64,000 nucleotides of DNA, taken from the NCBI GenBank assembly GCA_010093605.1, contig MU004181.1:124001-188000 (forward strand), written 5' to 3'. Below the pieces are notes generated by a model. The model worked only from the letters and a program-made list of their open reading frames with translations. It ran no database searches and had not been told where the DNA came from. This stretch comes from Lophium mytilinum (Eukaryota). Positions 7,220 through 59,445 of the stretch are shown one piece after another. Position 1 is the first letter of the stretch, and each line of letters starts with the position of its first letter. A program made the translations under genes and the position numbers.

Positions 7220-8434
7220 ATGGACCCGACTCCGCGCCAAAGCCCTCTAGTAGACTTCCTCACAGATCCTGGCCGCCACGTGCCCATGTTTGACGCTATT
7301 ACGCAGAACTTGGGCCCGGCCGACATCGTCAAACTCGGTCGCGTGTCCAAAGCTCTCGGCAATGTGTACCCCGCCGTCCAAAAGTCTCAGTGGAACATTG
7401 ACGCGTCCTTGAAGAAGTTCTTCAAGGAGCCCAAAGCTTTCCGTAACGCACTGAGCGAGGCCTGGGGAGTGATCTCAGGAATCTTCGCCCTCGACTTCCT
7501 AGATAGGCGAGCGCCAGGAAACCGGCTCGATACTTTCCTGCATCATGAAGTACCGGATGATGACGAGGATAACTTCTCATTTCTTGGTATGGAGAAATAC
7601 CTGAAGGATCAGGGATATACTGAAGACACGCCCCAGCGCATTCTTGGACAGCCAGTTGACATTGACATGAATAACGATTTTGGGTTCAAGATCTACGCCC
7701 TGGAAGGACATGGCGCTAGTGCAAAGCTGTCAGTTTACCTTCACGGCTGTCTTGCGGATCGCGTGTCTGATATCTTGACTAGCTGGACAACTTCCCAAAA
7801 TTCAACAGCTTTGTCTAATATCATCACCGCCACCAAGGCGTACGCGCCGTTCGCGCGGGAAACGTTCAAAGAGTACCGATCGTATTTAACCCAAGAAGCG
7901 AGTCAGTGGACCGTAGGGGGACTCCATGTGGTTGAAACTACTGGAAGGAAGATCCTAGATATCCGGCAGCAGGACAAACTGCTAAAGGACCATGCTCGGA
8001 GTCTCTCGGATGGCATGACGTGGACTTTAGTACTCGACTCTGAGGGGATCCAAGAGCCCTTCGCACCGGAATATATCACCGACGCCACGGTATTCTCACT
8101 CAGTGTCGACAAACGCCATGGTGTCAACTTCTACAACGTCGAAATTGAACCATTTGACCACGCGGTGTTAGAGCATACCTGGTATGTGCCGGAAGCCTAC
8201 CATGCGCCCCTGAGAGAAATACTTGACTCCATCGCGGTCCTCTCGTTCTTCAGAACCCCGAAGGAGAAGTGGGTGACGGAACTATCGGCATATCATACCC
8301 ACCAGGACGTCATCCGGAACCGACCTGATAAGGCTACGAACGCGATTGCTTGGCCACATAAGAAGCCGTACTACGATGACATGATGGTAGAGTGGATCCA
8401 AGAGGTGCAGAAGCAGATCAAGGAGACGAAGTAG
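7220..8434 (+). CDS. Family A paralogue (~404 aa)
   Basis: First ATG at 7220 (the track start is GTG). All family A motifs are present. Confidence 0.85.
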   Translation: MDPTPRQSPLVDFLTDPGRHVPMFDAITQNLGPADIVKLGRVSKALGNVYPAVQKSQWNIDASLKKFFKEPKAFRNALSEAWGVISGIFALDFLDRRAPGNRLDTFLHHEVPDDDEDNFSFLGMEKYLKDQGYTEDTPQRILGQPVDIDMNNDFGFKIYALEGHGASAKLSVYLHGCLADRVSDILTSWTTSQNSTALSNIITATKAYAPFARETFKEYRSYLTQEASQWTVGGLHVVETTGRKILDIRQQDKLLKDHARSLSDGMTWTLVLDSEGIQEPFAPEYITDATVFSLSVDKRHGVNFYNVEIEPFDHAVLEHTWYVPEAYHAPLREILDSIAVLSFFRTPKEKWVTELSAYHTHQDVIRNRPDKATNAIAWPHKKPYYDDMMVEWIQEVQKQIKETK

Positions 8435-8852
8435 TATTAGCGGCGAATGCGGTGCTGATGTGCACACCCTATCAATTCACAGCATTGTGACAGGAGTTTG
8501 GGCTTTCTTTGGTACTGTTTGGGGCGTTCCAATAGGCTCTTAATATTCGGACATGTTGACAAACTTCACACAATGAAAATTGGGCTACCGTTTGACTGGC
8601 CAAAGTCGTGATAGCTGAGGCACTCCTGACAGTGGCGTCGTGCAACTAAGAGTTGTTGCCGGGCAGTGAGATATATGTGTGCGTAAACTTATGACCTTAC
8701 TGTACCATTCTCCCTTAGAGGCTTAGCGTCGTGGGGGCCTTGGCGTGCTCGTCTTGTTCCGCATTCCCAACATCCACTCGCTGTTCGACCTCCACTTCAC
8801 CACACCGCGTCACACCCACAGCGTTCAACTCCAGCAACCGTACTAGAAGAAC

Positions 8853-9995
8853 ATGTCCAATTCTACCAGCATCCCGCCGCGCGCCAGCCCGCTCCTCAAC
8901 TTCTTGACGCAGCCGGGCCGATATGTGCCCTTTTTCAACGCCATCATCGAGCATCTTGGTCCAGCCGACATTATCAAGTTACGTGGTACGTCTCGAGATC
9001 TCGGCAACATGTATTCCACTCTCATAAGCACGAAATGGAACATCAACACCGCCCTATGGAAATTTTTCAAGCACCCGAAAGCCTTCCGCAACAAGCTAGG
9101 AGAGACGTCGGGGGTAATATCGGGACAGTTTGCGCTCGATTTCCTGGACAGAAAGCCGCCCGCGGACCGACTCGATATCTGGGTGCAAGGACATGCGGAG
9201 AGCCGGGAGGAGGAAGACGAAAACACGTCCCAGAAATGCTCCCACACCACTGTAGGTGAATGGATCCAACAGCAAGGCTACGTAGAGGACACGATCCTAC
9301 AGGAGATAAAAAGAGACGCTAAGTGGGGTTACAAGATGTACAGAGGGACTGCAGGGCGCGAAAATTTGACGATCCATCTCCACGGCTGCATGTGGAAGAA
9401 CCCCGTTCCTGACATCCTGGCCGACCGCAGCGTCCCCCAAGGCACACTGGCGCTAGTAAACATCATCACCGCGACGAAAATTTATGCACCATTCGCTCGA
9501 GACACGTTCACCAAAAATCACTCCTACATGCAAAAGGCCATTAGACAAGACCTCAAGGGACCGGTTGGAGAGATGGTCAACGTAGTAGCTCAGTCGCGTC
9601 AGATCCTAGACCCTCCGCCTCAAGCCGAAGACCACATACGGAGTTTCTCCGATGGCAACACCTGGAGGATGATGCTAGACTCCGAGGGCATCGCGCCGCC
9701 AGCCATCCCGGACTTTGTGACTGATGCCACGAGGTTCTCGGTCCGCGTCCAGCCCGAGTGCTATTCCATCAACACCGGTGAGCTCGAAGACCCTGCGCTG
9801 CGCTATGCCTGGGCTATGCCGGTCGATTACTTCCTGATTCTCTCTAAGAAGCTGAAGTTCCGCCGCGAGGTTCAAATGTATGAAACACCGCACGAGCTAG
9901 GATACTATGATGATAGAATGCCGAAGTGGATCAGTGAGACTGATCGGGAAGTTTCTTTGAAGATGCAAAAGGATATAGGCTGGTCTACACTATGA
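8853..9995 (+). CDS. Family A paralogue (380 aa, shortened C-terminal segment)
   Basis: Intact ORF with family motifs. It lacks roughly 35 aa between YETP and YYDD relative to its neighbours. Confidence 0.85.
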   Translation: MSNSTSIPPRASPLLNFLTQPGRYVPFFNAIIEHLGPADIIKLRGTSRDLGNMYSTLISTKWNINTALWKFFKHPKAFRNKLGETSGVISGQFALDFLDRKPPADRLDIWVQGHAESREEEDENTSQKCSHTTVGEWIQQQGYVEDTILQEIKRDAKWGYKMYRGTAGRENLTIHLHGCMWKNPVPDILADRSVPQGTLALVNIITATKIYAPFARDTFTKNHSYMQKAIRQDLKGPVGEMVNVVAQSRQILDPPPQAEDHIRSFSDGNTWRMMLDSEGIAPPAIPDFVTDATRFSVRVQPECYSINTGELEDPALRYAWAMPVDYFLILSKKLKFRREVQMYETPHELGYYDDRMPKWISETDREVSLKMQKDIGWSTL

Positions 9996-10049
9996 CGAAG
10001 CGTAGTACACCGAGACTGTAGTTAGAAATGATATTATATGTCTCTGAAA

Positions 10050-10760
10050 ACCCTGACTGACGTTCATGGCGTTTGTTTTGCTGATATTGGGAAATTTACT
10101 GGAACATAGATACCATAAGCAGATCGTTTTGGGCTTTATTTCTGAGCCTTTGTATTTGTTACTGTTCGGCTTCGTCTTGCTCACTTCACACCGTTGTAAG
10201 AAGTAGCCAAGTTGGCTGGGAGGTGTTGAGATAAACAGTACTCTGATTCGCACTATCTGCAGATTGATATCGCGCCTAGATGCATCTAGAAATATCTTAC
10301 AAGTCTGGGTATCCGAAATGATCCTGTTCGGCTTCAATTTTGCTTGCTTCATACCACTGGAAGGAGTAGCCCAGCTAGTCCTGAACTAATGAGTTAAACA
10401 GCACTCTGATTTGTCCTGTCTGGAATCTAAAATCGTACCTAGATAATTGCAGTACTGTTCCATAAGTCTGGGCACACGAATTTATATCTATTTGTCTCGA
10501 ATTTTGCTCCCTTAACGCCACTGTCAGGGGTAGCCTGGATGGTCGGTAGCTAGCTAGTCCAAACGCAGTCTAATATACACTTTCTGGAACCTGACATCAA
10601 GCTTAGATGCCTGCAGTACTAATCCACAAGACTGAAAACACCTATTTGAATCTATTCGCCTGGATTTTGCAACGTCAATACTACTGTCAGGGGTAGTCTA
10701 GCGAGTCAGTAAATAGCCGGTCAGAATAGAGTGCAGATTGTACTGTTTAAGACTAAACAT
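10050..10760. repeat. Degenerate tandem repeat, ~164-bp unit, ~4 copies
   Basis: The core (a/g/c)(c/t)(c/a)..CTGTCAGGGGTAG-like motif recurs at ~10190, 10353, 10517 and 10681, with aligned flanks (CTAGAT..CAGTACT..AAG.CTG; CT.TT.G.CT..A.TTTGC). Boundaries are approximate. Confidence 0.7.
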
Positions 10761-10959
10761 CGGCTTTGGATCCTTGAAACTTCGTGGGGGACTCAAGACC
10801 TATCACGTGATACCGTTATTCGCGCCAAGCCTTGTGTTCACGCGTGAGCGCGTCGTAGGTAACGTTACACGAAGTTCAAATCAAACATCCACCATAATTA
10901 CAACTTGCCATCGCCTCGATACCGCTATACTCTTCGCACTTCCACACAGCTTCAGCACC

Positions 10960-12357
10960 ATGGCTAGCTCACCAGCCGCTACGGACATGCTTCTCCACGA
11001 GATAGCTGCTCCTAGCACCAATCCAGCCACCATTTCGGACAACGCGAAGGCGCCGACTGAGACCCCCGCAGATAGTCCATCTTGTCAAGCTGTAGCGACG
11101 TTCGACACTGCCAAGAAGCCATCGAAAGGACGCCTTATCGATCTCCTCGATCCCGATAGATACATTCCTATGCTCGACAAGATCACCGAATACCTCGACC
11201 CGGCAGACTTAGTGAATCTGCGCCGCGTGTCTCGAAAGCTGGGCGAAGTGTACACGAAAGTGCAGCAAACGCAATGGAATATCAATACAGCTTTGAAGAA
11301 GTTCGTCAGGGATCCTGTAGAGTTCCGAAACAAGCTGGGAGAGGTATCTGGTATCATATCGGGTATGTTCGCGCTGGATTTTCTGGATCGACGTGCAACT
11401 GGTGATCGACTGGACATTTTCGTCCGCGATGTCAATCAAGAGGTCGTCGTCGATTGGTTTCTTCACAACGAGGACTATGTGTACGCAGACACTCTGGATA
11501 AGGACGGTGTTTGGCAGGACTATCACGCAAGTTCCTTTGTGGAGGAAAGACGTCCAGAATGGGAGAATCGGGATGGGATTCGCGAGGAATACATTCTTTT
11601 CCGCTTGACTCGTCTTGAGGCTACAAAACTCAGGGTGTACGTCCATGCCTCGCTCGATATACCACGTTCCTGCTTTCTTGCAACCAACGGCACCCAACAC
11701 TCTCTCGCCCTTGCAAACTTCATCACGGCGACGAAGGTGTATTCCCCCTTTGCGCGGGGCACATTCCTCGAATATCGCTCCTACACGCACGGTGTTGTAG
11801 GTGAAGATGCCGCATATGCCTTGAATGCCGTTGCATCGACTGGTAGAAAGACAGTTGGCATCCGCCTACAGGACTCGAGGATGAAAACGACCCTTCGCAA
11901 GTTCGCCGACGGCGAAACGTGGAGCATGATCCTCGACTCAACCGGCGTCCGAGCGCCAGAAACCCCTGACTACGTTGTCGACGCTACTGCCTTCCTGGTT
12001 GGTGCAAGTCATATGCTTATGTGGTTCTATGAAACAACCACGACCGAGATCTGTCACGTGGGTACTAATTACGTATGGCTGTATCCGTATCCAGATCAGA
12101 TCGTCCCCCATCTGGACACAGCGGTTGCATTGGAACTCTATAAAACCCCGAGGGAGAGTTTCGCGCATTGGGTGGATATACGCCCTACTCTTGCTCAGCT
12201 TGTCGAGCAGAGACATCATCGTAACCATCATTCTTTCCCGCATAAGACGTTTTATGATGATATGATGCCGCAATGGATCAAAGAGATAGAAGACGACATG
12301 GCGGCAGAAGAGAATGGGAGTCAAGATTACCCGAGGAAGCGCCCGAGGCTTCATTGA
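10960..12357 (+). CDS. Family A paralogue (~465 aa) with C-terminal NLS-like PRKRPR
   Basis: Likely ATG 10960 (MASSPAA). All family motifs are present; the protein ends YPRKRPRLH. Confidence 0.85.
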   Translation: MASSPAATDMLLHEIAAPSTNPATISDNAKAPTETPADSPSCQAVATFDTAKKPSKGRLIDLLDPDRYIPMLDKITEYLDPADLVNLRRVSRKLGEVYTKVQQTQWNINTALKKFVRDPVEFRNKLGEVSGIISGMFALDFLDRRATGDRLDIFVRDVNQEVVVDWFLHNEDYVYADTLDKDGVWQDYHASSFVEERRPEWENRDGIREEYILFRLTRLEATKLRVYVHASLDIPRSCFLATNGTQHSLALANFITATKVYSPFARGTFLEYRSYTHGVVGEDAAYALNAVASTGRKTVGIRLQDSRMKTTLRKFADGETWSMILDSTGVRAPETPDYVVDATAFLVGASHMLMWFYETTTTEICHVGTNYVWLYPYPDQIVPHLDTAVALELYKTPRESFAHWVDIRPTLAQLVEQRHHRNHHSFPHKTFYDDMMPQWIKEIEDDMAAEENGSQDYPRKRPRLH

Positions 12358-17700: not shown

Positions 17701-19157
17701 ACCGATGTTAACCTTAGACCTCATGTGGCACTAGAAACGTCAGCCGATATAACGTAAACATCCCCAAGAACTTGCACAGGATCGATTCAGATATGGTGAA
17801 GGTACTTGCAGGTAGTTGTGTTGATAGGCAGGTCAAGTATTAATTGGTTGATGGGTCAGTGGGGAAGCTAGCTACACAGAAAGGACAGATACACGGTATT
17901 GCGCTAAGTAAAACCAGTAGCCAGGAGCTGATCCTTCTTGCACTTCTCTTCACTCCCTTCAATGAGTTCGCTCTTCTAGTCGGGTCCTCTCTCTAAGCTG
18001 GTTAGTGTCTACGTTAAAAGAGTGATGGATATACGTACGCTTCGAACCTATTTCCATTGTATTTGGTTTTTAGGACAGCGCAGCGGCTGGTCATACGAAC
18101 TTCGATACGATTTGCTGGTGTTGACTGGCGGGTAGCACCGGCGGCGGGCGGGTCTCCGGCTCGATAAGCTGATGATTGGAAGGTCGAAGATGCGAAAGGG
18201 TTCCCCTTGGAACATGTCGTCAGATTCTGAATCGTTATCCTTGTGATGCGTCTGAGTGGGCCCCTGCCGGAAGATAAGACGGCGGCATGGTGGGAGAGGG
18301 GCACGTTCTGCAGGGCCCATAGAAGAACGCCCTTGATGAACGCGTCGACGGCGGACTTCATGACCGGGCGGAGGGTGAGCTGAAGCGCCACGGGCATGTT
18401 TCCACTAGGATTCTGTCCACGAAGACATCCACGGATTCCACGTCTTGGGCTACGAGGTCCACGGACATCGTCTGTGGTGGTCAACGACGCGACGACGAAC
18501 CTAAGAACCTTCCCGGGACCGACAGAATACAAGGAACGAACACCGAATCGGCCTTTTATCCATTTCCGGTCTTCGAGGTGCTCTCGCTTAGTCCAGGTCT
18601 TTGGAAACACCGGCTGATATCCTACACGGTTGTCAGTATCGATGTATGCTCATGGAGCCAGGAAGTTGCGTACACTAGGTAGGCGATCAGAAGGCCTGTG
18701 AGAACAAGGCACATGCAAGTCCAGATGACCAAACACATCTGCGGATGGTTGACGCAGATGCGGCCGGGTCTAGTGGCTCTCAGGGAGGCTCTCGCGACCA
18801 ACAGGGCTTGACGCTGGCTCTCCAGCATCTTGGCTGTCGCGACGTTGAAGAAGGCGGGTGCCAGGGTGGGCGATGCGTTGAAGACAGCACACCGTGTCGT
18901 GCGCTGGGAGCCTCGTCAACAGACGCATCCTTGTTGTGCTGGTCGTATCTGAGCGAAGTTAGCAACAGATATCGACAAGGCTCACACAGGGAGTGCGGGT
19001 GCCCTCGCAAGAGGGTGCCTTGCTTCGATGTCGGCGAGCAGTGGAGGAGCTTTCGCGACTTACGGGAGATGACTTGCTCTCGAGAAACAGAATACAGATA
19101 ACTGACCGCAATAGAGGAGGCAACCAGGCACGCTCCCCCCATGATGGGTCTGAGTGG

Positions 19158-22300: not shown

Positions 22301-24889
22301 GGAGAGCGCTGTTCTTTGCTTGCCAACGTGTTCTTTGTATAACACCCAGCGCGCTTTAATATGTGGGGCCTGCTGTTCAGCGATGGCTTAAGGGAAAAAG
22401 TCTTGAAAATCAGAGACTTGCTCTTGCGTGGGTGCCGAATAGGACTTTAACGGATGAGTGCAGGGCCGGGGAGAGCTATGCGAACAAATCCGTGGCACAT
22501 ATAGAGCTGGGAGGTCTGCTATGGTATTGTACTGTAGCTGTTTGCCCGACGGCAATTGCTGAGCGAATGGTGGTCACGAAGATGCTTGGCATTAGCGAAT
22601 TGAGCGACCAGGAACGTGAAGCCATGTCCGGGGCTCAGAAACGCCAGGACGATAGATGACCTTTCTCTTCCGTGCACGCAACGCTTTGGTCGTCGTAAGA
22701 GAATGTGCCTGAGTCAAAAATCCAGGTATGATGCTAGACCTGGCTTCCACAACCAAAGCTCATCAGGTCGCAAACTTTATACTAAGCCGAAGATGAATGA
22801 GAGGCGCCGCTGAAGAGGCTTAGCCGATGCAAAGGAATCCAGTTTTCAAGGCTTTACGGCGTTGCTTGTAGGTGTTTCTTGTTGTGAGATAGTAGGCGTG
22901 TTGTAGGTCAGGCCAGGCCCAAGGCATCCGTGTGTCCGAACTAGGCAATGGGATGCTGCAATACGGCTACGTAATGATGAACATCCGATGAGTAGGGAGG
23001 ATGAGTATCCAGGAATTAAGGCTGAAGAGGGTCTAGTAAGTAGGGCCGACAAGTTTCCAGACACTGAGGAGGAGAAAAGACCGACAACAGGGCTACCTAG
23101 GGACGGGGAAGAGGGGATTGCAGTGTTGGCAAGAGGTGTTGTGTAGGGATTCGACATGGAGGAGGGCTCGAGGGAATGACGTTTACGAAATCCGACCAGG
23201 TTCATAATATCAAGCCTATGCCTCTCTGCGCTAAGTCGAAGGACGATCCTGAAAACCCAGTAACACACGACAGCCTCCTGCATAGGCGCCAGCGTGATCT
23301 TCCTCTTTAACACCTTGGCCACCGCGAGCGGGAGTATGTTGATGTCGACAATCGTGCGTAAGGATGGAAAGGCTGAGCGATGAGCACATGGTAAAGGTTG
23401 GCTTCGAGGAGGAACGCTCTCCCAGGTGATGCCGATGCTGCATTCCAGGGGGCAACGAGCTATATAAGGAACAGACTGATGGGGACGCTAGCAAAGTCTT
23501 CTTGTAGGATGCAAGGGAGCTGGAGTCGCATCTTTGGAGCTTTCCCGTGAGTACTGTGCTCGCGGCCTGGCGGCTGGTGTTGTGGGCGTGACAGCTGCAC
23601 AGTCCATTGACGGCAGTCAAGCCGGCAAGTAGTAGATTCGAGATGAACTACACATCGGCGGAAGTAGAAGATGAGTAGAAACCAGCATCTCTGTGGTATC
23701 ATTGGAAGGCTTTGGACGGCTGCGAGCTGGTCGGCCAGTGCTGGAGGCCCGGCGCCCAGTCTACTGCCACCCTGCCAACCCCAGCGACGCCATCGTCAAA
23801 ACAAGCCACGCAATTTGGGCGAGGACAGCGGCGCGCACCGTCCACGCTCGCACTAATCAAGAGGGGGCCGCGTGGCAATTGGGGAAGGCAAACGCAGGAT
23901 GTATCCAGAAGCAGCTGGCGTGAACGCTTCAGACAGCAGCGCACCCACGATGGGTGGGCCTAACGGCGCTCTCCCGAGCAGGAACTTGCCATCCTTGCGA
24001 AAAGTTGCCGGCCAGTTCCTCACGAGCTCGTGGACTGTGATGTCGCCGGTGACGAGCAAGGCTAGCAGCTTGTCTATGTGCCAATCGCCGAGTTGTACCC
24101 GCCGAGGGGGTAGATGCGTTCGGTCAATCGGGCAGTAGAACAGGTACAAGGCGAGATCGTATTCCGCCGGGGGAATGGGTTTGGCGGGATGGGCCCGACG
24201 CCGTTCTTCAATTTAGGGCGGGATAACGCGGTCAGGTGGAGGGCCAATTTACCAGTGACCTGCTCAACTCGAAGAAGATTGAGGAGCTCGCCGCCAAAGA
24301 TGAGGCTGCCGAGAGCTCGGCGATGTGGTCAAGTCTGGGTGGTGGAGAAAGCAATAGGTTTGAAGTCGAAAGCTTCACGGAGACCGCGGGAGCTGTAGAC
24401 AGGGCGTCGATGCGGCGGCTTGTGGTGCTGCGGTGTGAGCAGAGGTAGGCAAAGATGCTGTTCGAGGTACTGCTGTCGAACGATGAGCTGCTGGAAATAC
24501 TAACCTATTTCTTCATGCGCTTCATAAGATTTACAGACAAAATGTTGATGAGTGATCTTGCTCCTAGGACACGTAACAAGCGAGCACCAATTAGAGCCTG
24601 CTAGGTAGGCTTTAGGGGGCTCGAGGGGTGCTGCAAGCAGTTACTAGAACGTCGGGCTAGTGGAGCAACTGAGGCTGACGATCAAGCCGGCGTGCCCGGG
24701 AAGTGCACTGCTACCCGAGACATTCGGGCCGGTAGGACGGGAGCTGCAGACGAGGCGGTGGACTCGAATCCCGCCTAGCTGTGAGTGCCCTTCGGCATGA
24801 CTACACGGGAAGGTGTGCGCATCAGGTACCCCAGACCCGGACGGCCCTATTCTCTAACTATATATTTGCTATAAGTTAGAATGTTTCTC

Positions 24890-25027
24890 GCCCTCACCTG
24901 TTCACGGTGAGGGTGGTTGTGAACATCGCTAATATCTATCATAGCATATAACAACGGAACCCGGGTTCGACCCCCGTGGAAGGCGTGATTACCTCCTTTG
25001 AGTCCTTAGGAGGAAAACATCTTTTTT
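24890..25027 (+). ncRNA. Putative Pol III small RNA, unrecognised family, copy 1
   Basis: TATATAT at 24859 (-31). Hairpin GCCCTCACC-TGTTCAC-GGTGAGGGT, then TGGTTGTGAAC, then GCTAAT..TAG (ends 24944). B box GGTTCGACCCC at 24964, GAGTCCTTAGGAGG, T6 at 25022-25027. Confidence 0.7.
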
Positions 25028-29898: not shown

Positions 29899-29971
29899 TA
29901 GCGCAAGAAGGACTCGAACCCCCATCTTCCTCTGCCAGCAGAGGATATGTTTCCATTCACACCATTGCGCC
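29899..29971 (-). tRNA. tRNA-like gene (73 nt) with non-canonical 8-nt anticodon loop; no amino-acid assignment
   Basis: GGCGCAA TG GTGT-GAATGGAA-ACAT A TCCTC-TGCTGGCA-GAGGA AGAT GGGGG-TTCGAGT-CCTTC TTGCGCT A, with a T-run downstream at 29885-29888. Confidence 0.7.
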
Positions 29972-34449: not shown

Positions 34450-35085
34450 GATCGACGTTTTGTGAAGCTATGAGTTAGAGGCAAAGATGGAGGATGCGAA
34501 ATAGGGGTTGTCTCAGGGTGTTGGATCTTATACTACCTCCTACCTTCAATCTAGAACTGCATGAAAGCACAATCGGGGGAAGAATACTTACAGGCGCCAA
34601 GCCGCCTCATGCATTGTCACTACGAAGTCGAACGTTGGGAAAAACGGTTCTAATCCGAATGCTCTACTTTTCACAACCAAGAAACCACCCCCATCCCGCA
34701 TCCTTCTTCCAACCTGTCTATATGTGGCCACCATCACCGCCAGTTGAGCTAAGAATAGTCCGGCTCGACCGGCCGCCTCATGCAGTATCACCACAAAGCC
34801 AATAGCGATTGTAAAACGTTCCAATTTAGCCTGCTGTAACATGCGCCACCCTCAGACAACCCCTATTTTGCCTTCCTCGTCTCGGCCACCAACTCATAAG
34901 GTCATGGAAAGTCGATTCAACTTAGTATTTTAAGCTTCATTAGCCCGCCTCATGCAACGCCGTCATGGTGCCAGGAGGATGTAGGATGTGGTTTGTATTT
35001 AGGTCACAGAGTATATGAAATTTGGTTTGGAGCGGTTCTCGGTAGGCTTTGATTCCGTCACTATAGTGCATGATGTAGCTTGGGT
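34450..35085. repeat. ~171-bp degenerate repeat in direct and inverted orientation
   Basis: CCGCCTCATGCA at ~34602, 34773 and 34945. 34451-34520 is an inverted match to 34847-34916, and 35020-35083 is an inverted match to 34598-34660. Confidence 0.7.
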
Positions 35086-36264
35086 AAGAACACTACGGGC
35101 TCAATCAGAGGCCACCGGACTCCGCCTTCTCGCCGTTATCAAGAGACTCTTTCTCGAAATCTCGAGAGAACAGCGAATCGTAGTCATACCCGTCCGTCGT
35201 CCATGCTGTCCATTCCCTGCGCCAAACCAGTGCTAACACTCGCTTCCAGGGCGCACTTCTCGCACTGATGATCCTCTTCGAACGCCGTTTCGGGTAGGTC
35301 TCCCTGGCGGTGGATGAGAAACGCAGGAAGATTGTCATGTCCACCGCCCAAATTTCTCGTCAAGTTCGGGAAGCGGTACGCAGCTGCAGGCGATGGTTAG
35401 CCCATTTGGAGCATCTACCGTGGTGCTCCCTGTGCCTATGGTAGTAGATGGTGCCAGGCGCCTAGTGCTCGATCGAGTTCGGTAGGTTGGGCCCATCTAA
35501 CGATTTCGCTGGCAGGTACGAAAATGGTTGAGAAAGCACGATTTCCAGCCTCGTCAAGTGAACTCACCTCGACGGTGTACATCCTGGGTACTGGAAAGGC
35601 AGCTGGGCGTGTGCTGTCGTCGATGCGTGCGCGCAGGTCTCAGCCGATGGGAGAATACCAAAAGGGAGCATATACGAACCGGCGCGTGTTGTTGGATGTA
35701 CCGTAGGCTGACGGATTGGGTATAGCGGAGGGCAACCTGGGCATTAGACTATCATGGCGTGCTTCTGTGGCGTCCGGCGTCTGAGTATATGAGAGACAAC
35801 TGGTAGAGGATTGACCGCCCTGAGGAGAAAAGGGGCCATATGTTTGCAAGAAGGGGTTGTCGGAGACGGGGAATGCTGCGAGTAGCGCTCCATCTTGGTG
35901 CTTCTGAATTAGCATGGTTTGCTCCCGCGAGGTGATTGCTCTCAGTCGCCCACACTGTCAGACTGGGCCCATCCCCGGCTTGGTGGGCTGCTTTGCGCGC
36001 CATTACTGGAAGCTGTGCTGCCAAATCGACCAGCGCAAAGGGTGGTCGCGGCGGCGTTGAGGAAAAGATTCCTGATCAGCGCAATGCAGCCTTCCTTACG
36101 GATGGATGCTTTATGGGTATGTGGAATTGAAGAGGGGCGCATTGGCGGGAGCATCGAGCGGCGAGCGAAGCCAATGAGCACCTCCGCCGTGGCTCCTTCG
36201 CTCCGCCTTCACGTGACGTTCGATCCTAGAACCGAGATAGGCGGAAATGATGATTATTGGGCAG

Positions 36265-37110
36265 CATTTGCATTTGGGTCACAATGTGAGCTTGCAGTGA
36301 CGACGTGTATGTCTATGCGCACCTTTTGCCGCTGCTAGGGGTGCCCCCATAGCTTTTCCATAATAAAGAAGCCACGTCTTGTTCCATATCGTGAAACTTG
36401 AACTGCCTTTTGACTAGCTAGCTCTCTAGTTTCTAGGGCACTCCTGACGGTGGTATCTAGCTTCCGAAAGGGATGCGAAAGGAATTGGGCTTCAAGGCTA
36501 GAAAAATGTTTGTCCGAAAGCATTTGCATATGGGTCACAATGGGAGCTTCTAGCGATATTCCATCGGTTTCTGCACACCTTTTACTCCTGCTAGAAGTGT
36601 CCCTTTAGCTTTTTAATAATCTAGAAACCATGTTCTGTTCTACACAGTAGACTCTAGGCTGCCTTTTGACAGGCTAGCTTTCTAGTCGCTAGGTACTCCT
36701 GACGGTGGTGTTTAGCATCTAAAGGTGATGCTAAAGGGATGGGACTTGGGCGCTTAGATCCACGGCGTTGAATTTGCTGCTGATAGAAGTACTACTATAG
36801 CTTTTCCAAAATCTGGAAGCTATGTCCTGTTTCATACAGTGGAATTTGGACTGCCTTTTGACTGGGTAGCTTTCAGGTCGCCAGGGTACTGCTGACAGTG
36901 GCGTCTAGCTTCCAAAGTGGATACGCAAGGAGTGTGACTGGGATGCATAGATCTACGGCCTTGAATTAGCTGCTGCCAGAAGTGCCCCCATAGCTTTTCC
37001 AAAATCTACACACCATGTCATGTTCTATACCGTGGAATCTGCACAGCCTCTTGCCTAGCTAGCTTTCTATCCACCAGGGTGCTCCTGACAGTGGTATTTG
37101 GCTTCCAAAC
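36265..37110. repeat. Degenerate tandem repeat, 4 copies (spacings ~255, 193, 192 bp)
   Basis: TAGCTTTT..AA, CTGCCTTTTGAC..GCTAGCT and AGGG(C/T)ACTCCTGAC(G/A)GTGG-like motifs recur at ~36440, 36695, 36890 and 37082. Confidence 0.85.
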
Positions 37111-37446
37111 GTGATGCTCAAGAAGTCATATTCGTGTGCGTGGAGTGTAAAGTCACGCATTCAAGGGGGCATCGCTGCCTGCATGTTGGAGGTGTGGGCA
37201 TATGGTGCCCTCAAGCGCCTTTTTTGATGAAGAAGGAGATATACAGAAGAACGCCACTCTCACTGACATACCCACATCTTTCCGATACTACTAGTGATCT
37301 CACAATCCTTCCTTACGGCACAAACAGCCCGCAGAACCGCTTCCATCCCCACATCCTACAGGCTACTCCAACTTCCCCTAGTCAGACCGACATAACTTCC
37401 AGTAGTACGGGAACGATGGAGGGGAACAAGCGGCTCGTTGTTGCGC

Positions 37447-38092
37447 TTAGTCGCCATAGAGGGAATCATCATCCACCCAATCGTCTAACTCACATAGTCA
37501 GCGAACAATTCCCAACAGTGGCATGCATCTTGAGCAAGCGTGCCGCTTTGCTGCGCGGAAAGCAGCTAGATAACACTCACCCTCGTCTACACCCTCGCCA
37601 GGCGTGCCCTCCTCGTCGGCCACATCCGCGGTGAAGAGCTCCTCGTTGCCCTACAAATGCAGCGTGTCAGTCACTTGGTCTCCGCGTAGCTATACGCGCA
37701 GAGGCATTGGGATGCGTGGGCTGCCATACCTGCTCCGCCGAGGAACTGGGCACGGCTGAAATCGACTCGGAGGCCGACGAGTCACTGGCTACGGCGTTGT
37801 CGATGGTGCCGGGGGCGCCTGTAGGCGTAGGTGATTGTGCAGAACCGGTCTCAGGGCTGGCCGAATCGCGCTGTGGTGCCGCAGCGTCAGCGGAGACGAA
37901 GAGGGATCCGCCAGCGCTTCTGGGTCTGCTCGGGCGTGTGGTGGAGGGTGGGGGGGTGATGCTGGCCGTGTCCGCGAATATACCAAAGCGTGCCGAAATG
38001 TCTTGCAGCAGCATGCGGCGGCGGGGTGCGAGCAGGGTTGGCGCGCTCTTTGACGTTGCGCCCTGCTGGACATTTTCCTTGCCGGGGGCCAT
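37447..38092 (-). CDS. 156-aa disordered protein, 3 exons (38092-37730, 37650-37581, 37484-37447), KEN and D-box-like motifs
   Basis: Introns GTATGG..CTGAC..TAG and GTGAGT..GCTGAC..TAG keep the frame. Protein: MAPGKENV...RRRMLLQDISA...SSAEQ|GNEELF...GVDE|DDWVDDDSLYGD*. Confidence 0.7.
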
Positions 38093-38894
38093 CTTGAATA
38101 GGCCTTGAAGAGGATGCGCTGTGCGGAAAGGTGTGGCAGGAGGGGGAGGTGCGGTTTGGGCTGGCGTGGACGACGACGCAGGCTTGCCCAGCAGATACGC
38201 CAGCCTCCTAATTTAAATTCTTCCCCGCGCTCACGGAGACGGCCTCATTGCCGCCGAAACAGAGTTTTCTTTACACGTAAGGAACAGAAAACGAGTGATG
38301 ATTAGTCACACTTGGGCCATCATGGGCGTCAAGTCGGGCGGAGAGAGCTGAGTATATGGGAATCGGGTAGTCTTAGGGGGGTTTTCTGCTGCAATATAGA
38401 GCTAGACGTACACGCTATGTGGGAATAAAGTTATGAACTTGTCCTTCACAGCTCAGGGCTAAATCTAACACATGGAACACTTGATGAAACATCTTCGTAG
38501 GGCGGGGTCAGTATGCGAGATATGCACGCGGGCGCTTGTTTTACAACTTCATTTTGATTCATTCTACTGCAGGTTTGGAAGATTATGAAAAGAAAAGCAA
38601 GTGACGTTCCCTTTCGAGCCCACCAGTTGCATTGATGCCCGAGAAGCAACCTCTACTACCATGTGTTGCCGCCCATTTTTATGTGCCTTTCCGCCAGACA
38701 GATGATAGTAGTACCACTGACTATCGCAATACCGTAACTCAGCCTTCCCACCTACGTCCCTGTCGGCCTTCTGACAGTCTATCATCTCTGGGAAACCTCA
38801 GCAAGGCCCTCGCACTCCCTCGCCGAATGTCCTGTCATTACTACCTAGTTCAGCGGTCAGCAAAGGACACCGGCAACATAGATAGATGTACTAC

Positions 38895-40770
38895 TTACTC
38901 TCGCCAGTAGCCAGGGTAGAACGCAGATCGGGCCATGTGCGGGTCGTCATCCTCGTTTGGCTGCGTGCTTGCGTCTCGGCGAGCTTGAGAGCTTCCAGCG
39001 GGAGCTGGCACTGGCGCCTCATTTGCAACCATTCCAGCACCGTAGTTGGCGAGTACCCTGTAATGGCTCTCGAATGGATCAGCTCTCGGTGTCGCGAACT
39101 CCGCTAACTCCTCCGCGAACCAATTTGGCTCCTCGTCCGTAGCCTGAGTTATCATGAGCATGGAGGGATCAACAGTAAGGTCCGTGATGCCAGCATCTGT
39201 CTGGTTCCTAATTTCTTCCGGTATCTCGTTCATGGAGGCATCAATGGACGGATCCAATTCCTCGCCCATGCCGCTGCCCTGGGTCTCCGCGACGCGGTCC
39301 CCCGAGACCCCTGAGCGCTGGGGGTCGTACGCGCGAGATGGGTCCATCCCTCTGGCCTCACAGATTCCAAGTGCATCATCGTAGTCGTAGAGTGCGATAT
39401 TGAAGCTTGTCTGTGCGGCATCGAAGCTCGCCTGTGCGGCATCGACGGTTGCTCTTGTGGCATAGACGCTTGCTCTTGCGGCATCAAGGACTGCCCTTGC
39501 GGCACTGGAGTTTGCTTCTGCGGCATCGAGGACTACCCTTGTAGCTTCGTAGCGAGCCAAACAGGCGGCATCAGACTCAGGCTCCTCGTTGAGGCCGTGG
39601 CGGGGCTGATAAGGGTTAACGAGCGCACGCTGGGCTATGGCTTGCATTTGCTCAACTGGTCCAACTCCAGGGCGTTGCGCGAGCGCGGAGTTGACGGGAC
39701 CACGGCCGGTGGATGCGCGCACCTGTCTAGCCCGAGGGTGGTGAGCTTGTGCACCTGCTTCATCTCTCTCCCGTTCTTCTTGCATCAAGGCCTGGTGACG
39801 GGCATTGCGCTCGGCCATGGTCAAGCGAGGGCGGCGCGGTGGTGTAGCTGTCACTACATCGTCCCCCTGGCCTTGCGCGAGTGCGCTGTTGCGGGAACCA
39901 CGGCTGGTGGCTAGACGCAGCTGTTCGGTGTGATGGCGAGGATCATGTGGAGATGCCACTGCTCTACCTCCCAAACCATGCGTGCCCCTGGCGTCGGGGA
40001 AGTAACGGTCAGGGCGTACGGAAACCCGTCCGACACGGGTTTGATAGGTATTTGGCGCCGCTTGGGGTTCGTCCTCTTCTTCTTCATCCTCGTCTTCCAT
40101 GGCCTCAGTGTTGAGGGAACCACGGCCAGTAGCACGTGGGGTCGGTCCAGCACGAGGTCGCTCAGCCTGCCGAGAACCTGCTCCTCCACCTCCCTGGCTC
40201 CGCGTGACATTAGTGGCGAGGGAACCGCGGTTGGTGCTTGTCGTGCGCTCTCCAGAAGAGTTGCTAAATGGAAGTATGGTTTCATCATGGCCCAGCACCT
40301 GCGAGGTGCTGAAGCGGCGACCTGGAGTCGTAGCAGGCTGAGCGACGATCACTCCCGTGGACGAGTGGCGGCCTTTGAGTGCAATTGTCTGGCGCTTGGG
40401 CTGGCGCTCGGAATCGCTGTCATCGTCGGACTGCTCGGCGGGGGGAGCAAGTCCTCTGAGCGCGGAGGTGATTCCTGTCTTAGAGGCGCGCCTCTTCCTC
40501 TTCTTCGCGCTCGGTTGCGAGTTACTGCTCGCGTCGCCGCACCTGTGGCAATTATGCTGGCCTGCCTTCTTACAACGCTCGCAGGTGTCGTGGCCGGGGC
40601 GCATCCAGCAGGGACCCTTTTTTTGCCTACGACAGTATGTGCCTTGTCCATGCTGTTAGCTTGTGGTGTACAGGTTATCATAGGACGCTGAAGTACTCAC
40701 AGCAATTGCGTCCAATCTGCTTGACAGCGTCTTTGGGGACGTCCTCTTCCTTCCCTTTTTTGGGCGCCAT
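38895..40770 (-). CDS. Zn(II)2Cys6-like protein with long low-complexity and coiled-coil region, 2 exons (40770-40701, 40642-38895)
   Basis: Intron GTGAGT..GCTAAC..AAG (40700-40643) gives CTYCRRQKKGPCWMRPGHDTCERCKKAGQHNC. KKRKRR is NLS-like. Ala-rich heptads (LDAA/VDAA/FDAA). Confidence 0.8.
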
Positions 40771-41409
40771 GAACGTAGCGGCCTCGAAATGGGCGGCGAC
40801 GTCTACGAGGTGGGGAACGACCACGGCGCTGGGTATCTGTGGAGCAGCGCGAGGGGTGATGGAGTTATTGGCGTGCGGACCAAAATGTGGAGTGGAAGTT
40901 GAAGAGGTGGATGGCGAAAAAGTGGAGAGGAAGGTGGAGAGTTGGAGGGGCGGGCGACGAGCCTTTACACTGTTGACTGGAGTTGTGTGAATGGTGCCGC
41001 CTCGCAAGAGCAGGCGATGCCCGTCTTCCAGGATACCTTGCCGAGATTGAGATCGTTTTCGTGATTAGTGCAGTGCCGAGCAGAAAGTTGCGAACTGCGA
41101 GATGATGGTGTCGTAGTGTTGTGAATAGAAACCACTGGCCGCAGGACGTTAAAGTCTCCACGCCCAAGCACATGAAACTCTCGGCGGGCAAACATGGATG
41201 TCAAATCACTGCCTGCGAGGGGGCAAAAAGCTGTGTTTCGCATAACTCATTGTGCCATAGTGCGCTGAGCTTTATTTTGTTCGCCGCTCGCTACACTTCC
41301 TCACGTTTCTCTACACGCGCTAAACCATCACCACCAGCCCGCAACTTCAATAACCAGCAGCAAAAGAACACAACGTCTATAGATAGAGCCACATAGACAT
41401 ATCAAAAGC

Positions 41410-41531
41410 AAAAAAATGTTTTCCTCGTAAGGACTCTAGGCGAATACCGCCTGCTCGGGACTCGAACCCAGCATGTTCCTATGATGATTGTCAGCATGTT
41501 TCATTACCACCCTCACCACCGGGGTGAGGGC
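41410..41531 (-). ncRNA. Putative Pol III small RNA, unrecognised family, copy 2
   Basis: TATATAT at 41562 (-31). GCCCTCACC-CCGGT-GGTGAGGGT, TGGTAATGAAAC, GCTGAC..TAG (41479), GGTTCGAGTCC, GAGTCCTTACGAGGAAAACA, T7. Confidence 0.7.
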
Positions 41532-42213
41532 GGGGTACAGTTCGAACTGTAGGAAATATATAGCTAAGGTCAGGGCCGAGCCCCTCCTCCCCATTTCCCC
41601 CCCACGGCATTTTAACTAGTACTACCACAACCCGCAGAGCTCCTAGGCTAAGCTTGCTTTCTCAGCGAGTTGAGTCTTCGCCCTGCGCCAGGGGTGCCCC
41701 GCCCATAGGGAAAATAAGAAGCTATTGGCGAATTTTGCGCCTGCGAGCCGCAGGGCCCTGCCACCTGTGCCACCAGCCGCCACGCAACACTACCCTCCCG
41801 AACTGAATGTTCTACTTTGGCCGCGGCCTCCTTATGCACTGTGCTTTCTTCGTCCCCCATACTCCTTGGCAGGGCGTCTTCCTCAAGGGCGCCATCACGC
41901 AGCCGTTGTCACCAAAAGCTGTGCCCCATCGGGTTGTTTGGCTGGAGCGTCTTCGCCTCCTACCTGCACGCCCTGTACGGCTACACATGTGTCACTCATG
42001 TTAGGTCAATGGAGAATCATCCAGCGCCGTCTGTCTACGCTCATCATCCTCTAGAAATCTTCAACCCAGGCTACAGCTTCTGGCATCACAAACGCGACCT
42101 CGCCCGCTCCATCCCTCCAGCACTACAAACAACCATCGCTTTCCATATTCCTCTACTCTCTCTACTCTTCCACGAATCCGTCAACCCAGCGCCCCCTCCA
42201 TCCCTCGCATCCA

Positions 42214-43458: not shown

Positions 43459-43625
43459 GTACTTGCGTGCGGGAGAAAGTGCGCAGAGTGGAGCAAGCTA
43501 CTATATACGCAGACTATCACGCATTTTGATCACGCTGTCACTTCGTACTATGCATGGAATTAGATCTTAGACTAAGATTTCGTGAAAAAGTTTGCCTTTG
43601 CCTCTATTCAAACTCTTGCGGAAGC

Positions 43626-44108: not shown

Positions 44109-44252
44109 GATGGAGTTTAGAACGGCCGGTGGCTCTATATATACACGAACGCAAGGAACAGCACAGAACGTAGCAAGCTGACACAAACGCAATGTATCAC
44201 ACGCTATAGTCCGGCCCCAACTCTACACTTCACATGCGCCCGGATCATCCGA

Positions 44253-51511: not shown

Positions 51512-51651
51512 AAAAAGAAACTGCCTCGTAAGGTCTTGAGAGCCGAGGGGCTCGAACCCAACTCCCCGTTGTGCAATGGAGGCTGATTCAATGAGAGCCT
51601 AGTAACCTGTTAGCGATGTTCTTAACCACCCTCACCACCGCGGGTGAGGGC
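51512..51651 (-). ncRNA. Putative Pol III small RNA, unrecognised family, copy 3
   Basis: TATATAT at 51682 (-31). GCCCTCACC-CGCGGT-GGTGAGGGT, TGGTTAAGAAC, GCTAAC..TAG (51599), GGTTCGAGCCC, CCTTACGAGG, T5. Confidence 0.7.
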
Positions 51652-54020
51652 GAAAGACGGTCGAACTTACAGCAGATATATAGGCGAAGATTGAGTGCAC
51701 ACTAGCCTCGGGTCTTCACCTCGGGTCTCCACGCATTTAAGCCTGCGCAACCCCACTTCACTCTACTAAGAGTCTATGCCACAATGAAGCCTACGTCTCG
51801 GTCAAGGCTTAGTAGAAATGTCGTAGTTTCATCACCTCGTATTCTGGTATTTTTAGATCGACGAGCCAGAAGCTGGCCCCTCTCCCCCTGCTGTACTATA
51901 TGATATAGTATGTAATTTCGCATTATGTAGGTAAGCTTGTTCCTCGCTACAGCTAGTATGGCCTACTACAAGAAACATCTTGCTCACATTTTAGTATTTT
52001 AAACACAGAGAGCAAGCCGATCATGTATTTATACTTTCAGTTCATCACACAGTAGCTATAGCCAATTCAAGAGGTTGAGCATGATACCACGACTTGGTCT
52101 TCTTAAAATCCCGACGTTGGGCTATCTACCGTTTTGCCCGCCATATACAAGAGTATGTTTGCTCCAGACTCTGGAGCATGGCTGGATTGGATCCGGATGC
52201 GTTACATGTACTAAGATTAATTCGAAACACTCATATGGAACGGAGAGGATTTCATCGATACATCCTAATTCATACTCCGTAGCTTCAACCTCCGCCTTCA
52301 TATCCCCGTGCAAGCGCTCGACTTCCAGCAGCTCACTGTTTCACTTATCCCCCCGCCCTCTTGCCGACATATAAAGAGTGCCCAGCGCATGAGCTCCTGC
52401 CGTGACTGTTCGTCAGATACCGGCACTCCATCTAGCACATGATGAATTTTCCACCTACGTCGAGTCGCTGCCTTCTCAATGCCTCCGGGCACGCCTTGAA
52501 CCTCGGCCATGCGCTCAGTAGACTGTGGCAGCATCTCCTTCGGCGCCACCATGCGAGCGCTTGAGACGCCCTGAATCTGCTTGATCTTGAGGCCCTGGCC
52601 GATGAGCCAAATCTTCGAGCTCCGCGGCGAGTTTGCTCCATATGTAGAATGAGCCCTCAGACCCAACAGGCCCTTTCCTCAGCGGTGGTAGTGTTCGATG
52701 GTGGCTCGGAGGCCAAGTATCGGAACGGCTCGACGGGGTGTCGTTGGACGCAATGTTTACGTCTCGGTTGTCTCGAAGGGCGACGTCTTCGTTTTTGAAA
52801 GTCAGGGCCGCGGTCCTCGCTGTAGTAGGGTTCTCAGACCCTTCTATAATCTTGTCTTTGCACTGTCTGTCCTACATGATGTGCTTAAAGGCCCTGATCT
52901 GGGCAGCGTGGTTGTCGCTCGTGCTTGGCGTCCTCGGCCAGTACTCGGCGATGCGGCCGCATGGTTGAAGCTGTCGCACCTAGGGGATGAGGACCTTATG
53001 CCGTGATCGGAGAGCAGAGTCTGCTTCGCGTGCTTTGGGGTACTGGGGACCGCTCGCGCGAGGCTCTTCTGCTTTGCGTCGGCGACCTGTGCCTTCTGAG
53101 CGGGTGTGAGGGCTGCCTCGTCGAGCGTGAGGCAGAGAGACGGATTGACCTGTATGTGCTCCTCTGGCTTCCGGACGACCGCTACGTGGCGTGGATTATC
53201 CGAGGCCGTAAACGAAATCGCTTGCTTCGTGAGGTGGGCGTTTCCGCGTATGTAACTTGAATCAGCGTCTTGCGCAGTAATGTTACGTCCGATGGGATCG
53301 TTTCCAGAACAGCCACGGGCCGGCTCTGTATTCGGACTCTGCCGGGAAACTCAGCCGCTGGGTCCTGCCTACATCTACGGCGACTGGTATCTTCTGGCCA
53401 CGGATCTCGCCAAGCTCTCTTCTGGTCATGTGCATCTACAGCATCTGTTAGCGATTGTGAAGAGTGGTAGAGACTTCAGGAATTTTACCGTCATCCTCCG
53501 CATTGCTAGGGCCATCCACGCTTGAGACCCAAGCTGGAGCAGGTTGCAGCTGCTCCCGATCCTCACAATCGGCCGTCTGGCGTTTATCAGTTGCGGCTAT
53601 ACTTGTATCCAATGCTGTGCTTGACTAGATTTGTGTTGGCACTAGTGCGAGTGGCGTGCCGAATTTGGTGTGTTTGGGATAATGAGGTAGCGACGGTGAT
53701 GGAGATTGGCGATCGTAGTGGAGCGCTTCGGCGGCGGAAAGACACTATATTTGGAACTGAAGAATGACAGCAGACCGTGGGTGGGGTCCTAACGTGGGCG
53801 GGCACGGTAGGCAAAATAGAAGAGGGCCCCGCTGCCTCAGTGACCGGCAGACCGGTGCCCCCTCTCGAGGGCTTAGTGACGGGCGGGTGGCTCAAGAAAG
53901 CCTCAAAAGAAGGCCGACGCGGAGAAGAACTCAAGAGAGCCAAAAGAAAGGTTATTTAGTTATTAGATCAAGATCTATAGCGACTATTACAAGAGATGTT
54001 AAAAATAAATCAAAAAGATT

Positions 54021-54123
54021 AAAAAAAGACTGGGACTCGAACCCAGGCCCATAGGCGAAGTCAAGAAACTAGTAAGCTGTTAGCACTGTTTCATGACCAC
54101 CCTCACCGTGAACAGGTGAGGGC
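54021..54123 (-). ncRNA. Putative Pol III small RNA, unrecognised family, copy 4 (lacks the 3' module)
   Basis: TATATA at 54154 (-31). GCCCTCACC-TGTTCAC-GGTGAGGGT, TGGTCATGAAAC, GCTAAC..TAG (54069), CTGGG-TTCGAGT-CCCAG stem-loop, T7. Confidence 0.7.
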
Positions 54124-55149
54124 GAAAGACGGTCGAACTTATTGCTGTTATATAGCCTAGTTGAACGACAAGTCCGTGCGGGGTACGACTTTACTTGCGG
54201 GAGCGGGCTGCCCAGGGAACGCCAGCGCGGACTTGCCCCGAGAGCTAGGCGGCCTACAGTAACGACTTCACCATACTCGTCCTATTCTACAGCAGTGAGT
54301 TACACGTCTTCTATCTTTGCTAACACGAAGCAGCACTTGACTGTATTGGCACTGTGATTGTACACAGGCGGCGAATACGGCTCCTCTAAATCTGAAGTAG
54401 ACGCACGCACAGTACACACTAGGTTAAATTCTGGATCTTTGGTATCTGCGATGAGATTCTCCCTGCACCGTGCATTTTTGTCCCATAAGGTCTCGCTTTT
54501 GAATTTTCGGCGGAAAGTATGATCCGTACGCGTCTAATTTAAGAGAGTCGCTGTATGCTCAAAGACCCTCTGTGTATACTTGACTTCGTGGAGTAACGAA
54601 TACATATTGCCATCCTATCACGCGACTTTTGATGATTCTTTATCAATTGTCAAGTCGATATCCACGTTTGCTCATTGTGAGGGTTCAAGTTATAGATGCA
54701 CTCTATTCGCGGCAAGCTGGACCTTCTGCAAGGCTACATATAATGGAGGATCACAGCGGTTGAGAAATGTTTAGATCAGAGACACCTTCCACTTGCATCA
54801 TCGAAAAATGATGCGATATCAGAGTTTTAGGAAGTGCATCTCCGAGGATCCTTAGGATTGTTTGGCAAGAAATTACGATTACGTATCGTCTATGAAGCTA
54901 TCAGGATTCTTAATGTCCATTACGAAGATTGAGAGGCTGGCCCCCCGCTAGACTAGGGGAACATTGTCCCACTCAAGACTGCACAACCAAGTGTAAGCTC
55001 GTTGTCAATTTACGGACCCCACTTAGCCGACCGCTAGCTGAAAAAGTCTGTACCCCTCCACTGCTTCCATCGCGTGCCCGGGAAACTGAAGCTGGCGGCG
55101 TTCTTCCTCTACAATCACACGCTCCCGAGCGTCTAGTAGGTCCTGAAAC

Positions 55150-59288: not shown

Positions 59289-59445
59289 ACTCTGCGCCTG
59301 CTTGAGGCGCTCAGAGCAAAATCGATCCCCTCGAAATAAGTGATCAAGAATATACCAGATGCAATGACTGTCAAGGAGTGCGGATGTCGTCATTTCATTG
59401 CCATAGCCTAGTCTACCGGAAATGCGTTAGGATGTCCTAAGATCC

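Follow-up and report, generated by a model that had tools for sequence, protein, structure and literature searches.

Does a 37–38 nt segment shared by four small-RNA copies constitute a miniature spliceosomal intron, or is it a look-alike composed of other parts of the gene? The question arises from a stretch of DNA of 64,000 nucleotides (hereafter the window), in which all four copies contain the succession G|GTGAGGGTGGT...GCTRAY-(7–8 nt)-TAG over 37–38 nt. The reading that we favour, with moderate confidence, is that these loci form a new family of tRNA-derived Pol III small RNAs whose segment only resembles an intron, being assembled from a hairpin arm, an internal promoter and a conserved motif that is single-stranded. 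The bolder view, that the core of a Pol III-type RNA would be a complete miniature spliceosomal intron, its donor masked by the RNA's own U1-like 5' arm and engaged by the spliceosome or by branch-site factors, appears distinctly unlikely. If so engaged, the RNA would act either as a structure-gated substrate freeing its 5' arm onto copy-specific bodies, or as a mimic titrating splicing factors.

Intron-type signals of the segment

Direct reading and a script parse (GTGAGGGTGGT + 10–11 nt + G + CTRAY + 7–8 nt + YAG) retrieved the segment in the four copies, with the coordinates, lengths and motifs that a first-pass annotation of the window had given for it:

24907..24944, plus strand: look-alike of copy 1, 38 nt, GTGAGG...GCTAAT, 8-nt spacer, TAG
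41479..41516 (41516-41479), minus strand: look-alike of copy 2, 38 nt, GCTGAC, 8-nt spacer, TAG
51599..51635 (51635-51599), minus strand: look-alike of copy 3, 37 nt, GCTAAC, 7-nt spacer, TAG
54069..54106 (54106-54069), minus strand: look-alike of copy 4, 38 nt, GCTAAC, 7-nt spacer, TAG

The intron-signal pattern is real in every copy. It comprises a GT donor with a consensus-like extension (GTGAGG in 4/4), the branch motifs CTAAT, CTGAC, CTAAC and CTAAC in copies 1 to 4, respectively, then 7–8 nt and TAG, with 11–12 nt from the branch A to the G of AG. Both changes within the branch motif fit CTRAY, as the annotation had proposed. Its description of a freely varying spacer between branch and TAG did not hold, as the spacer falls into two sub-types (copies 1 and 2, copies 3 and 4) and 2 of its 8 columns are invariant.

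In this geometry, GTGAGG + CTRAY + YAG occurred five times in the window (the four copies and 59413-59449), compared with a mean of 0.1 in 30 shuffles. Relaxing the donor to GTRNG gave 10 occurrences vs 6.7 in shuffles, and accepting any GT gave 58 vs 51.9. Since the four copies are paralogues, they count as one retained ancestral event and not as four, and the chance of the pattern in a single ~140-nt RNA is estimated at ~0.7% (GTRNG) to 6% (any GT).

Three further stretches of 37–40 nt combine a strong donor, a GCTAAC- or CCTAAC-type branch and YAG: 18949-18987 (minus strand), within a short-chain-dehydrogenase-like ORF; 54295-54333 (plus strand); and 59413-59449 (minus strand), overlapping the stop codon of an 813-aa ORF. 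Judging from their signals, they may be real very short introns. The extended GCTAAC form was seen again in other intron candidates of the window. An ORF-joining intron model returned 209 candidates, too noisy to set the intron lengths of the organism; four strong-donor candidates, picked by eye from these noisy 209, measured 54–81 nt, compared with 37–38 nt for the look-alike. This difference speaks against a real mini-intron, but weakly, since the three additional stretches imply that very short introns may exist in this organism.

Gene units and Pol III-type architecture

Each look-alike is embedded in a larger unit delimited by a TATA box and a T run:

24859..25027, plus strand: whole unit of copy 1, TATATA 24859-24864, start G 24890, T6 stop 25022-25027
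41410..41562, minus strand: whole unit of copy 2, TATATA 41562-41557, start G 41531, T7 stop 41416-41410
51512..51682, minus strand: whole unit of copy 3, TATATA 51682-51677, start G 51651, T5 stop 51516-51512
54021..54154, minus strand: whole unit of copy 4, TATATA 54154-54149, start G 54123, T7 stop 54027-54021

From 5' to 3', the units are composed of TATATA, GCCCTCACC, a 5–7-nt loop, GGTGAGGGTGGT, 10–11 nt including GAAC, GCTRAY, 7–8 nt and TAG, followed by a 9–39-nt body without common sequence, GGGTTCGANNCCC in a short hairpin, a tail of 0 to ~50 nt and T5-7. A short 3' tail module common to copies 1–3 is missing from copy 4. Alignment A1 of the four loci has 236 columns and a mean column identity of 65%. 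Mean pairwise identity reached 1.00 in the 5' arm and 0.64 from -36 to -1, compared with 0.31 from -100 to -37 and 0.26 past the stop; the copies are unrelated outside the unit, which therefore runs from the TATA box to the T run. Profiles of A1 and A2 (nhmmer) retrieved the four copies at E 1e-18 to 1e-57 and nothing else at E < 2 in the 64-kb window. Identity between copies is mosaic, with 30 of 30 nt shared by copies 1 and 4 (24888-24917 vs 54096-54125), 27 of 27 nt by copies 3 and 4 (51643-51669 vs 54115-54141) and 25 of 27 nt by the tails of copies 1 and 2 (25000-25026 vs 41410-41436), a pattern that suggests gene conversion or modular exchange.

The promoter signals follow a fixed arrangement. 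TATATA lies exactly 31 nt 5' of the G of GCCC, the predicted start, in 4/4 units. The 11-mer GGTGAGGGTGG is found at +15 to +17 in all copies, these being its four exact occurrences in the window. Downstream by 37–66 nt (4/4 copies) stands the 13-mer GGGTTCGANNCCC, which we take to be B-box-like by its fit to the B-box consensus, and which has four matches in the window, one per copy, vs 0.03 expected:

24963..24975, plus strand: B-box-like GGGTTCGACCCCC of copy 1, loop and stem of the T-arm-like hairpin
41457..41469, minus strand: B-box-like GGGTTCGAGTCCC of copy 2, from the 13-mer motif count in the window
51547..51559, minus strand: B-box-like GGGTTCGAGCCCC of copy 3, from the same count
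54032..54044, minus strand: B-box-like GGGTTCGAGTCCC of copy 4, from the same count

An A-box counterpart is less sharply defined: GGTGAGGGTGGT, together with the 10 nt after it, can be aligned to the part of a tRNA-like gene of the window that forms acceptor strand and D-arm, and partially matches the A-box consensus, a loose assignment made by eye against that consensus and this one gene. At the 3' end, no T run of ≥4 interrupts any of the four units, the first T5-7 run occurs at +97 to +136, and a back-up T run lies ≤4 nt from the first stop run in 3/4 units. The predicted RNA of copy 1, whose first run of T≥5 is at +133, is about 133–138 nt long. In the available part of PMC5855946, a TATA box together with A and B blocks is described for the yeast U6 gene, and the usual A-to-B spacing of tRNA genes is given as 30–90 bp. 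The Pol III promoter elements listed for plant tRNA genes include back-up T runs, and the B box has conserved GG and CC at its ends (PMC11700998, available part). The gene architecture of the four copies backs the Pol III small-RNA framing put forward at first pass.

Two further observations concern the spacer between TATA box and start. In copy 2 it contains a perfect palindrome (41536-41551, a 16-nt inverted self-match), and GTTCGA, a B-box-like core, is present in the spacers of copies 2–4.

A TATA box ~31 nt before the start would also suit Pol II. The units would then be Pol II core promoters, each supplying a downstream ORF with a short leader exon, common to the copies, and a mini-intron in its 5'-UTR, a layout compatible with the conservation from TATA box to TAG and with the same-strand ORFs found ~70–800 nt downstream of each copy. 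Such promoters would, however, leave unexplained the perfect B-box-like motif in 4/4 copies, the terminal T5-7 run (with back-up in 3/4) and the absence of internal T4 runs, and we regard them as highly improbable.

tRNA-like features and family identity

At gathering scores, Rfam identified in the whole window only a tRNA at 29899-29971 (minus strand, 37.7 bits), with an abnormal anticodon loop for which ARAGORN proposed a four-base anticodon (ctgg) and named no amino acid. The D-arm stretch of this tRNA-like gene is similar to positions +21 to +36 in the small-RNA genes. In alignment A3, which combines it with the four copies, 21 columns are invariant across all five sequences; they cluster in the T arm and over the acceptor strand and D-arm (GG.G..A.GGTG, AA). 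In the same alignment copy 2 is 69 nt long, compared with 73 nt for the tRNA-like gene. These invariant columns and the near-tRNA length of copy 2 lead us to read the family as tRNA-derived, on the basis of one alignment with a single, abnormal tRNA-like gene and with no cloverleaf drawable. Most likely, the family would descend from a tRNA gene that gained a 5' arm able to fold back on what had been the acceptor strand, and in which the D-arm stretch would still act as A box. The D-arm of tRNA is the usual seat of the A box, and bases 5–20 of the look-alike overlap the stretch that aligns with it, so that the segment probably covers the A box of these genes.

Several known classes were set aside. 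The loci are not tRNA genes themselves: no cloverleaf was found, and ARAGORN and the Rfam tRNA model match only 29899-29971. Rfam searches of the four loci at E ≤ 5–10 gave only weak, irrelevant matches, and U6, vault, Y, SRP and spliced-leader RNAs were ruled out by the lack of an Rfam match there. C/D and H/ACA snoRNAs were rejected because their boxes, sought by eye, are not in all copies, and an introner-like element because GT and AG do not bound the repeated unit. Guide-like variable bodies were likewise dismissed, blastn-short of the four units against the window having returned only the copies and chance words of 11–12 nt.

The tRNA-like layout of A- and B-type blocks, the likeness to the tRNA-like gene, the variable body and tails, and the mosaic identity that suggests gene conversion would all be expected of a decaying tRNA-derived repeat (SINE-like or tRNA pseudogenes) with a functionless RNA, kept, if at all, as TFIIIC/Pol III sites. 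Against this stands a TATA box at exactly -31 in 4/4 units, outside the RNA, followed by a spacer 64% identical between copies although the flanks are at random level; an upstream promoter inside the repeated unit argues against a retroposed RNA, which would not carry one. Moreover, none of the four copies is flanked by a shared word of ≥7 nt that could represent a target-site duplication, and conservation of the first 55 nt at the 5' end goes far beyond what would survive neutral decay. We judge a decaying repeat unlikely.

Circularly permuted tRNA genes are not known from fungi. The units would fit this class if the 5' hairpin were an acceptor stem whose strands the intervening loop connects, and if the gene were broken where the T stem meets the acceptor 3' strand; the TATA-like box, the acceptor-type hairpin with its short intervening loop and the T-stretch stop indeed match the described layout (PMC3978253, available part). 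However, a D stem or anticodon arm is not drawable in any copy, the A-like and B-box-like blocks stand in normal order, ARAGORN and the Rfam tRNA model find nothing at the copies, body length differs by 30 nt, and no bulge-helix-bulge was noticed by eye at the ends. Such genes are, in the available part of PMC3978253, reported only from six algae and one archaeon. We consider this origin extremely improbable.

RNA structure and conservation

The donor of each look-alike lies in a hairpin at the 5' end of the predicted RNA:

24890..24914, plus strand: 5'-terminal hairpin of copy 1, 9-bp stem, 7-nt loop, -16.8 kcal/mol
41509..41531, minus strand: 5'-terminal hairpin of copy 2, 9-bp stem, 5-nt loop, -16.5 kcal/mol
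51628..51651, minus strand: 5'-terminal hairpin of copy 3, 9-bp stem, 6-nt loop, -16.8 kcal/mol
54099..54123, minus strand: 5'-terminal hairpin of copy 4, same as copy 1, loop included

GCCCTCACC pairs with GGTGAGGGT in 4/4 copies, which confirms the annotated pairing of the 5' arm CTCACC(TG) over the donor. RNAalifold found just two helices in the four transcribed regions, this hairpin (11 pairs, a count that includes two upstream bases) and the T-arm-like hairpin (4 pairs); the middle of the four RNAs showed no common fold with RNAalifold or in single folds. All pairs of the 5' hairpin are invariant except one flanking pair (U-G to C-G), and such an invariant stem offers no covariation to prove it. 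The sequence architecture, these consensus hairpins and the absence of an Rfam match at the four loci are direct observations.

In thermodynamic ensembles computed for the four RNAs, the unpaired probability of the six donor bases was 0.000–0.059 each. The last 2–3 bases of GCTRAY reached 0.91–0.93 in copy 1, 0.61–0.92 in copy 2, 0.69–0.72 in copy 3 and 1.00 in copy 4, and GCTRAY is conserved without a consistent pairing partner across the copies. The A-to-G change in the branch motif of copy 2 would also suit a CUR/UAG pairing; as the copies do not agree in the partners predicted, this alternative is weak too.

Within the gene, conservation is highest in the look-alike and lowest in the "exon" 3' of TAG. 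The first 11 nt of the look-alike are invariant in the four copies, presumably because they form the hairpin, and six more of its columns outside the splice signals are invariant as well. The conserved block stops exactly at TAG, with 0/8 invariant columns in the next 8 nt and a distance to the B box that ranges from 9 to 39 nt. Beyond the hairpin, 6/8 columns of CTRAY and YAG are invariant, vs 6/20 of the segment's remaining columns (p = 0.04 in a one-sided hypergeometric test made post hoc), and the interior between donor and branch keeps the non-splice-signal bases G, AA and G. Removing the segment in silico left products of 61–99 nt with unrelated minimum-energy folds, and ARAGORN detected no tRNA in the eight spliced and unspliced forms.

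These data bear on two readings in which splicing factors would recognise the segment. A real mini-intron, or a substrate of the first step only, would be engaged by the spliceosome on opening of the 5' hairpin, so that structure would gate its splicing, and would yield a product in which the released 5' arm is attached to the variable body. It accounts for the complete set of donor, branch and acceptor in 4/4 copies with the branch A 11–12 nt from AG, for substitutions kept within CTRAY, for the higher invariance of the signal columns, for conservation ending at TAG and for the recurrence of GCTAAC among the other intron candidates of the window. According to the available part of PMC5855946, spliceosomal introns are found in Pol III-transcribed fungal U6 genes, in U1, U2 and U5 snRNAs and in ascomycete rDNA, and in intron-bearing small RNAs such as U6 the exons are the conserved part. 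Here the opposite holds, with "exons" that are the least conserved; furthermore, the donor is unpaired less than 6% of the time, the interior has invariant non-signal bases and overlaps the D-arm-like stretch, and the spliced products share no fold. A mini-intron or first-step substrate is thus very unlikely in our view.

The second reading dispenses with splicing: the RNA would mimic an intron, offering a branch-site-like loop and a masked donor to a branch-binding protein or U2, as a decoy or sensor. The mostly unpaired last bases of GCTRAY and the retention of this motif without a consistent partner are compatible with such a role. Nevertheless, this is pure inference, the conservation of a motif of five bases may have many causes, and we hold the mimic to be most improbable.

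The overlap of the look-alike with the gene's own hairpin and probable internal promoter makes it more likely a look-alike than an excised piece. Read in this way, the conservation of GCTRAY and TAG is left unexplained.

Homologue searches and genomic context

The hairpin pattern was retrieved at 121 or more metagenomic loci, and none of the matches listed combined an upstream TATA box with a downstream B-box-like motif. The hairpin + B-box pattern gave no match in genome_contigs or in viral_contigs. Without the 5' arm, the A-like + B-box pattern returned 24 viral and at least 120 prokaryotic loci, and the arm was upstream in none of the 144 listed. One spacing recurred in 20 of the A-like + B-box matches listed, about half of them with near-identical flanks, and these look like conserved protein-coding DNA. 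No description of such a family was found in the literature on fungal Pol III small RNAs, by motif search, or in the available part of PMC2377427.

The window has a G+C content of 49–55%, and two paralogous families fill much of it. Five neighbouring paralogous ORFs of 380–539 aa (one on the minus and four on the plus strand) occupy 2549-12357 without a Pfam family, one pair being 36% identical over 415 aa. The members of the second family, at 47591-48850, 55150-56166 and 59446-61887 (all minus strand), have no Pfam match either and are interleaved with copies 3 and 4; two of them share 48% identity over 237 aa, and the third member was judged by eye. No Pfam family was found in any of the 12 largest ORFs, and 44 further ORFs gave one short-chain dehydrogenase match and one KH match below the cut-off. 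The latter corresponds to a KH-domain-like exon at 52301-52678 (minus strand; 20 bits vs a Pfam cut-off of 21.5). Comparing the contigs of run X1 with positions 35001-55000 revealed just two short matches (36884-36920 and 52470-52599, 90–95% likeness), neither of them on the small-RNA genes; the match at 52470-52599, within the KH-like exon, is probably a conserved gene of a relative.

Discussion

From four paralogues in one window, we infer transcription by Pol III, its start site, the absence of splicing and an origin from tRNA. As tRNA-derived Pol III genes, the four loci would be paralogues encoding small RNAs of ~97–138 nt under a hybrid promoter. TFIIIC would bind the B-box-like GGGTTCGANNCCC at +63 to +93 and the A-box-like stretch at about +15 to +33, TFIIIB would occupy TATATA at -31, and Pol III would start at the G of GCCC and stop in the first T5-7 run. 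The stable 9-bp hairpin at the start of the RNA would hold the 5' triphosphate end. The conserved, mostly unpaired stretch after it (GAACA..GCTRAY..TAG) would offer a recognition surface, and would be followed by the variable body of 9–39 nt, the T-arm-like hairpin and a variable tail. In terms of the presumed tRNA ancestor, the 3' arm of the hairpin would take the place of the acceptor 5' strand, followed by the D-arm-like stretch and, at a tRNA-like distance, by the T arm. The 37–38-nt look-alike would stay in the RNA.

Among known systems, fungal U6 genes combine likewise a TATA box near -30, internal A/B-type blocks, a T-run stop and intron-type signals within a Pol III gene. U6 RNA also has a 5'-terminal stem-loop, a further likeness to the small-RNA copies. 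In contrast, no U6 sequence or Rfam U6 match exists at the four copies, and U6 introns interrupt highly conserved exons, whereas in the copies it is the look-alike that is conserved, and it extends over the A-like block and leaves the B box outside. In the Schizosaccharomyces pombe U6 gene, it is the B block that lies inside the spliceosomal intron (PMC5855946, available part).

tRNA-related SINE families are described in Aspergillus fumigatus in the available part of PMC5063351. The small-RNA units share with tRNA genes and tRNA-derived repeats the order and spacing of the A- and B-type blocks, the T-arm-like hairpin and a T-run stop with back-up, and the window's own tRNA-like gene resembles the copies. 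They differ by having neither cloverleaf nor flanking direct repeats, and by a fixed TATA box at -31 and an extra 5' arm folding on the former acceptor strand.

Vault RNA genes are clustered, lineage-specific Pol III small-RNA genes with mixed upstream and internal promoters. They also resemble the present family in that paralogues lie within tens of kb of each other, the ends or promoter boxes are conserved while the middle varies, and the RNAs measure ~100–140 nt. Unlike them, the four loci gave no Rfam vault or Y match at E ≤ 5–10, and the 5' and 3' ends of the small RNAs do not pair.

Fission-yeast telomerase RNA reportedly undergoes spliceosomal cleavage limited to the first step. Spliced-leader RNAs and this telomerase RNA provide precedents for small RNAs as substrates of the spliceosome, and for a donor base-paired in the 5' stem of the same RNA. 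Compared with spliced-leader RNA, the would-be leader loop differs between the copies, their signals are of Pol III type, and no Sm-type site was noticed by eye; they also have an internal acceptor, which spliced-leader RNA does not need.

If the bold reading were true, these genes would represent the first non-snRNA small RNA with a conserved spliceosomal mini-intron controlled by its own fold. The four copies also call for caution: what looks like a full set of splice signals can result from a short conserved motif combined with a hairpin arm and an internal promoter. If the plain reading is true, no concept would be changed, and the four loci would represent a family of Pol III small RNAs that is new, lineage-specific and probably fungal, with a hybrid promoter and tRNA-like ancestry; it would help annotation and could serve as a compact cassette for Pol III expression.
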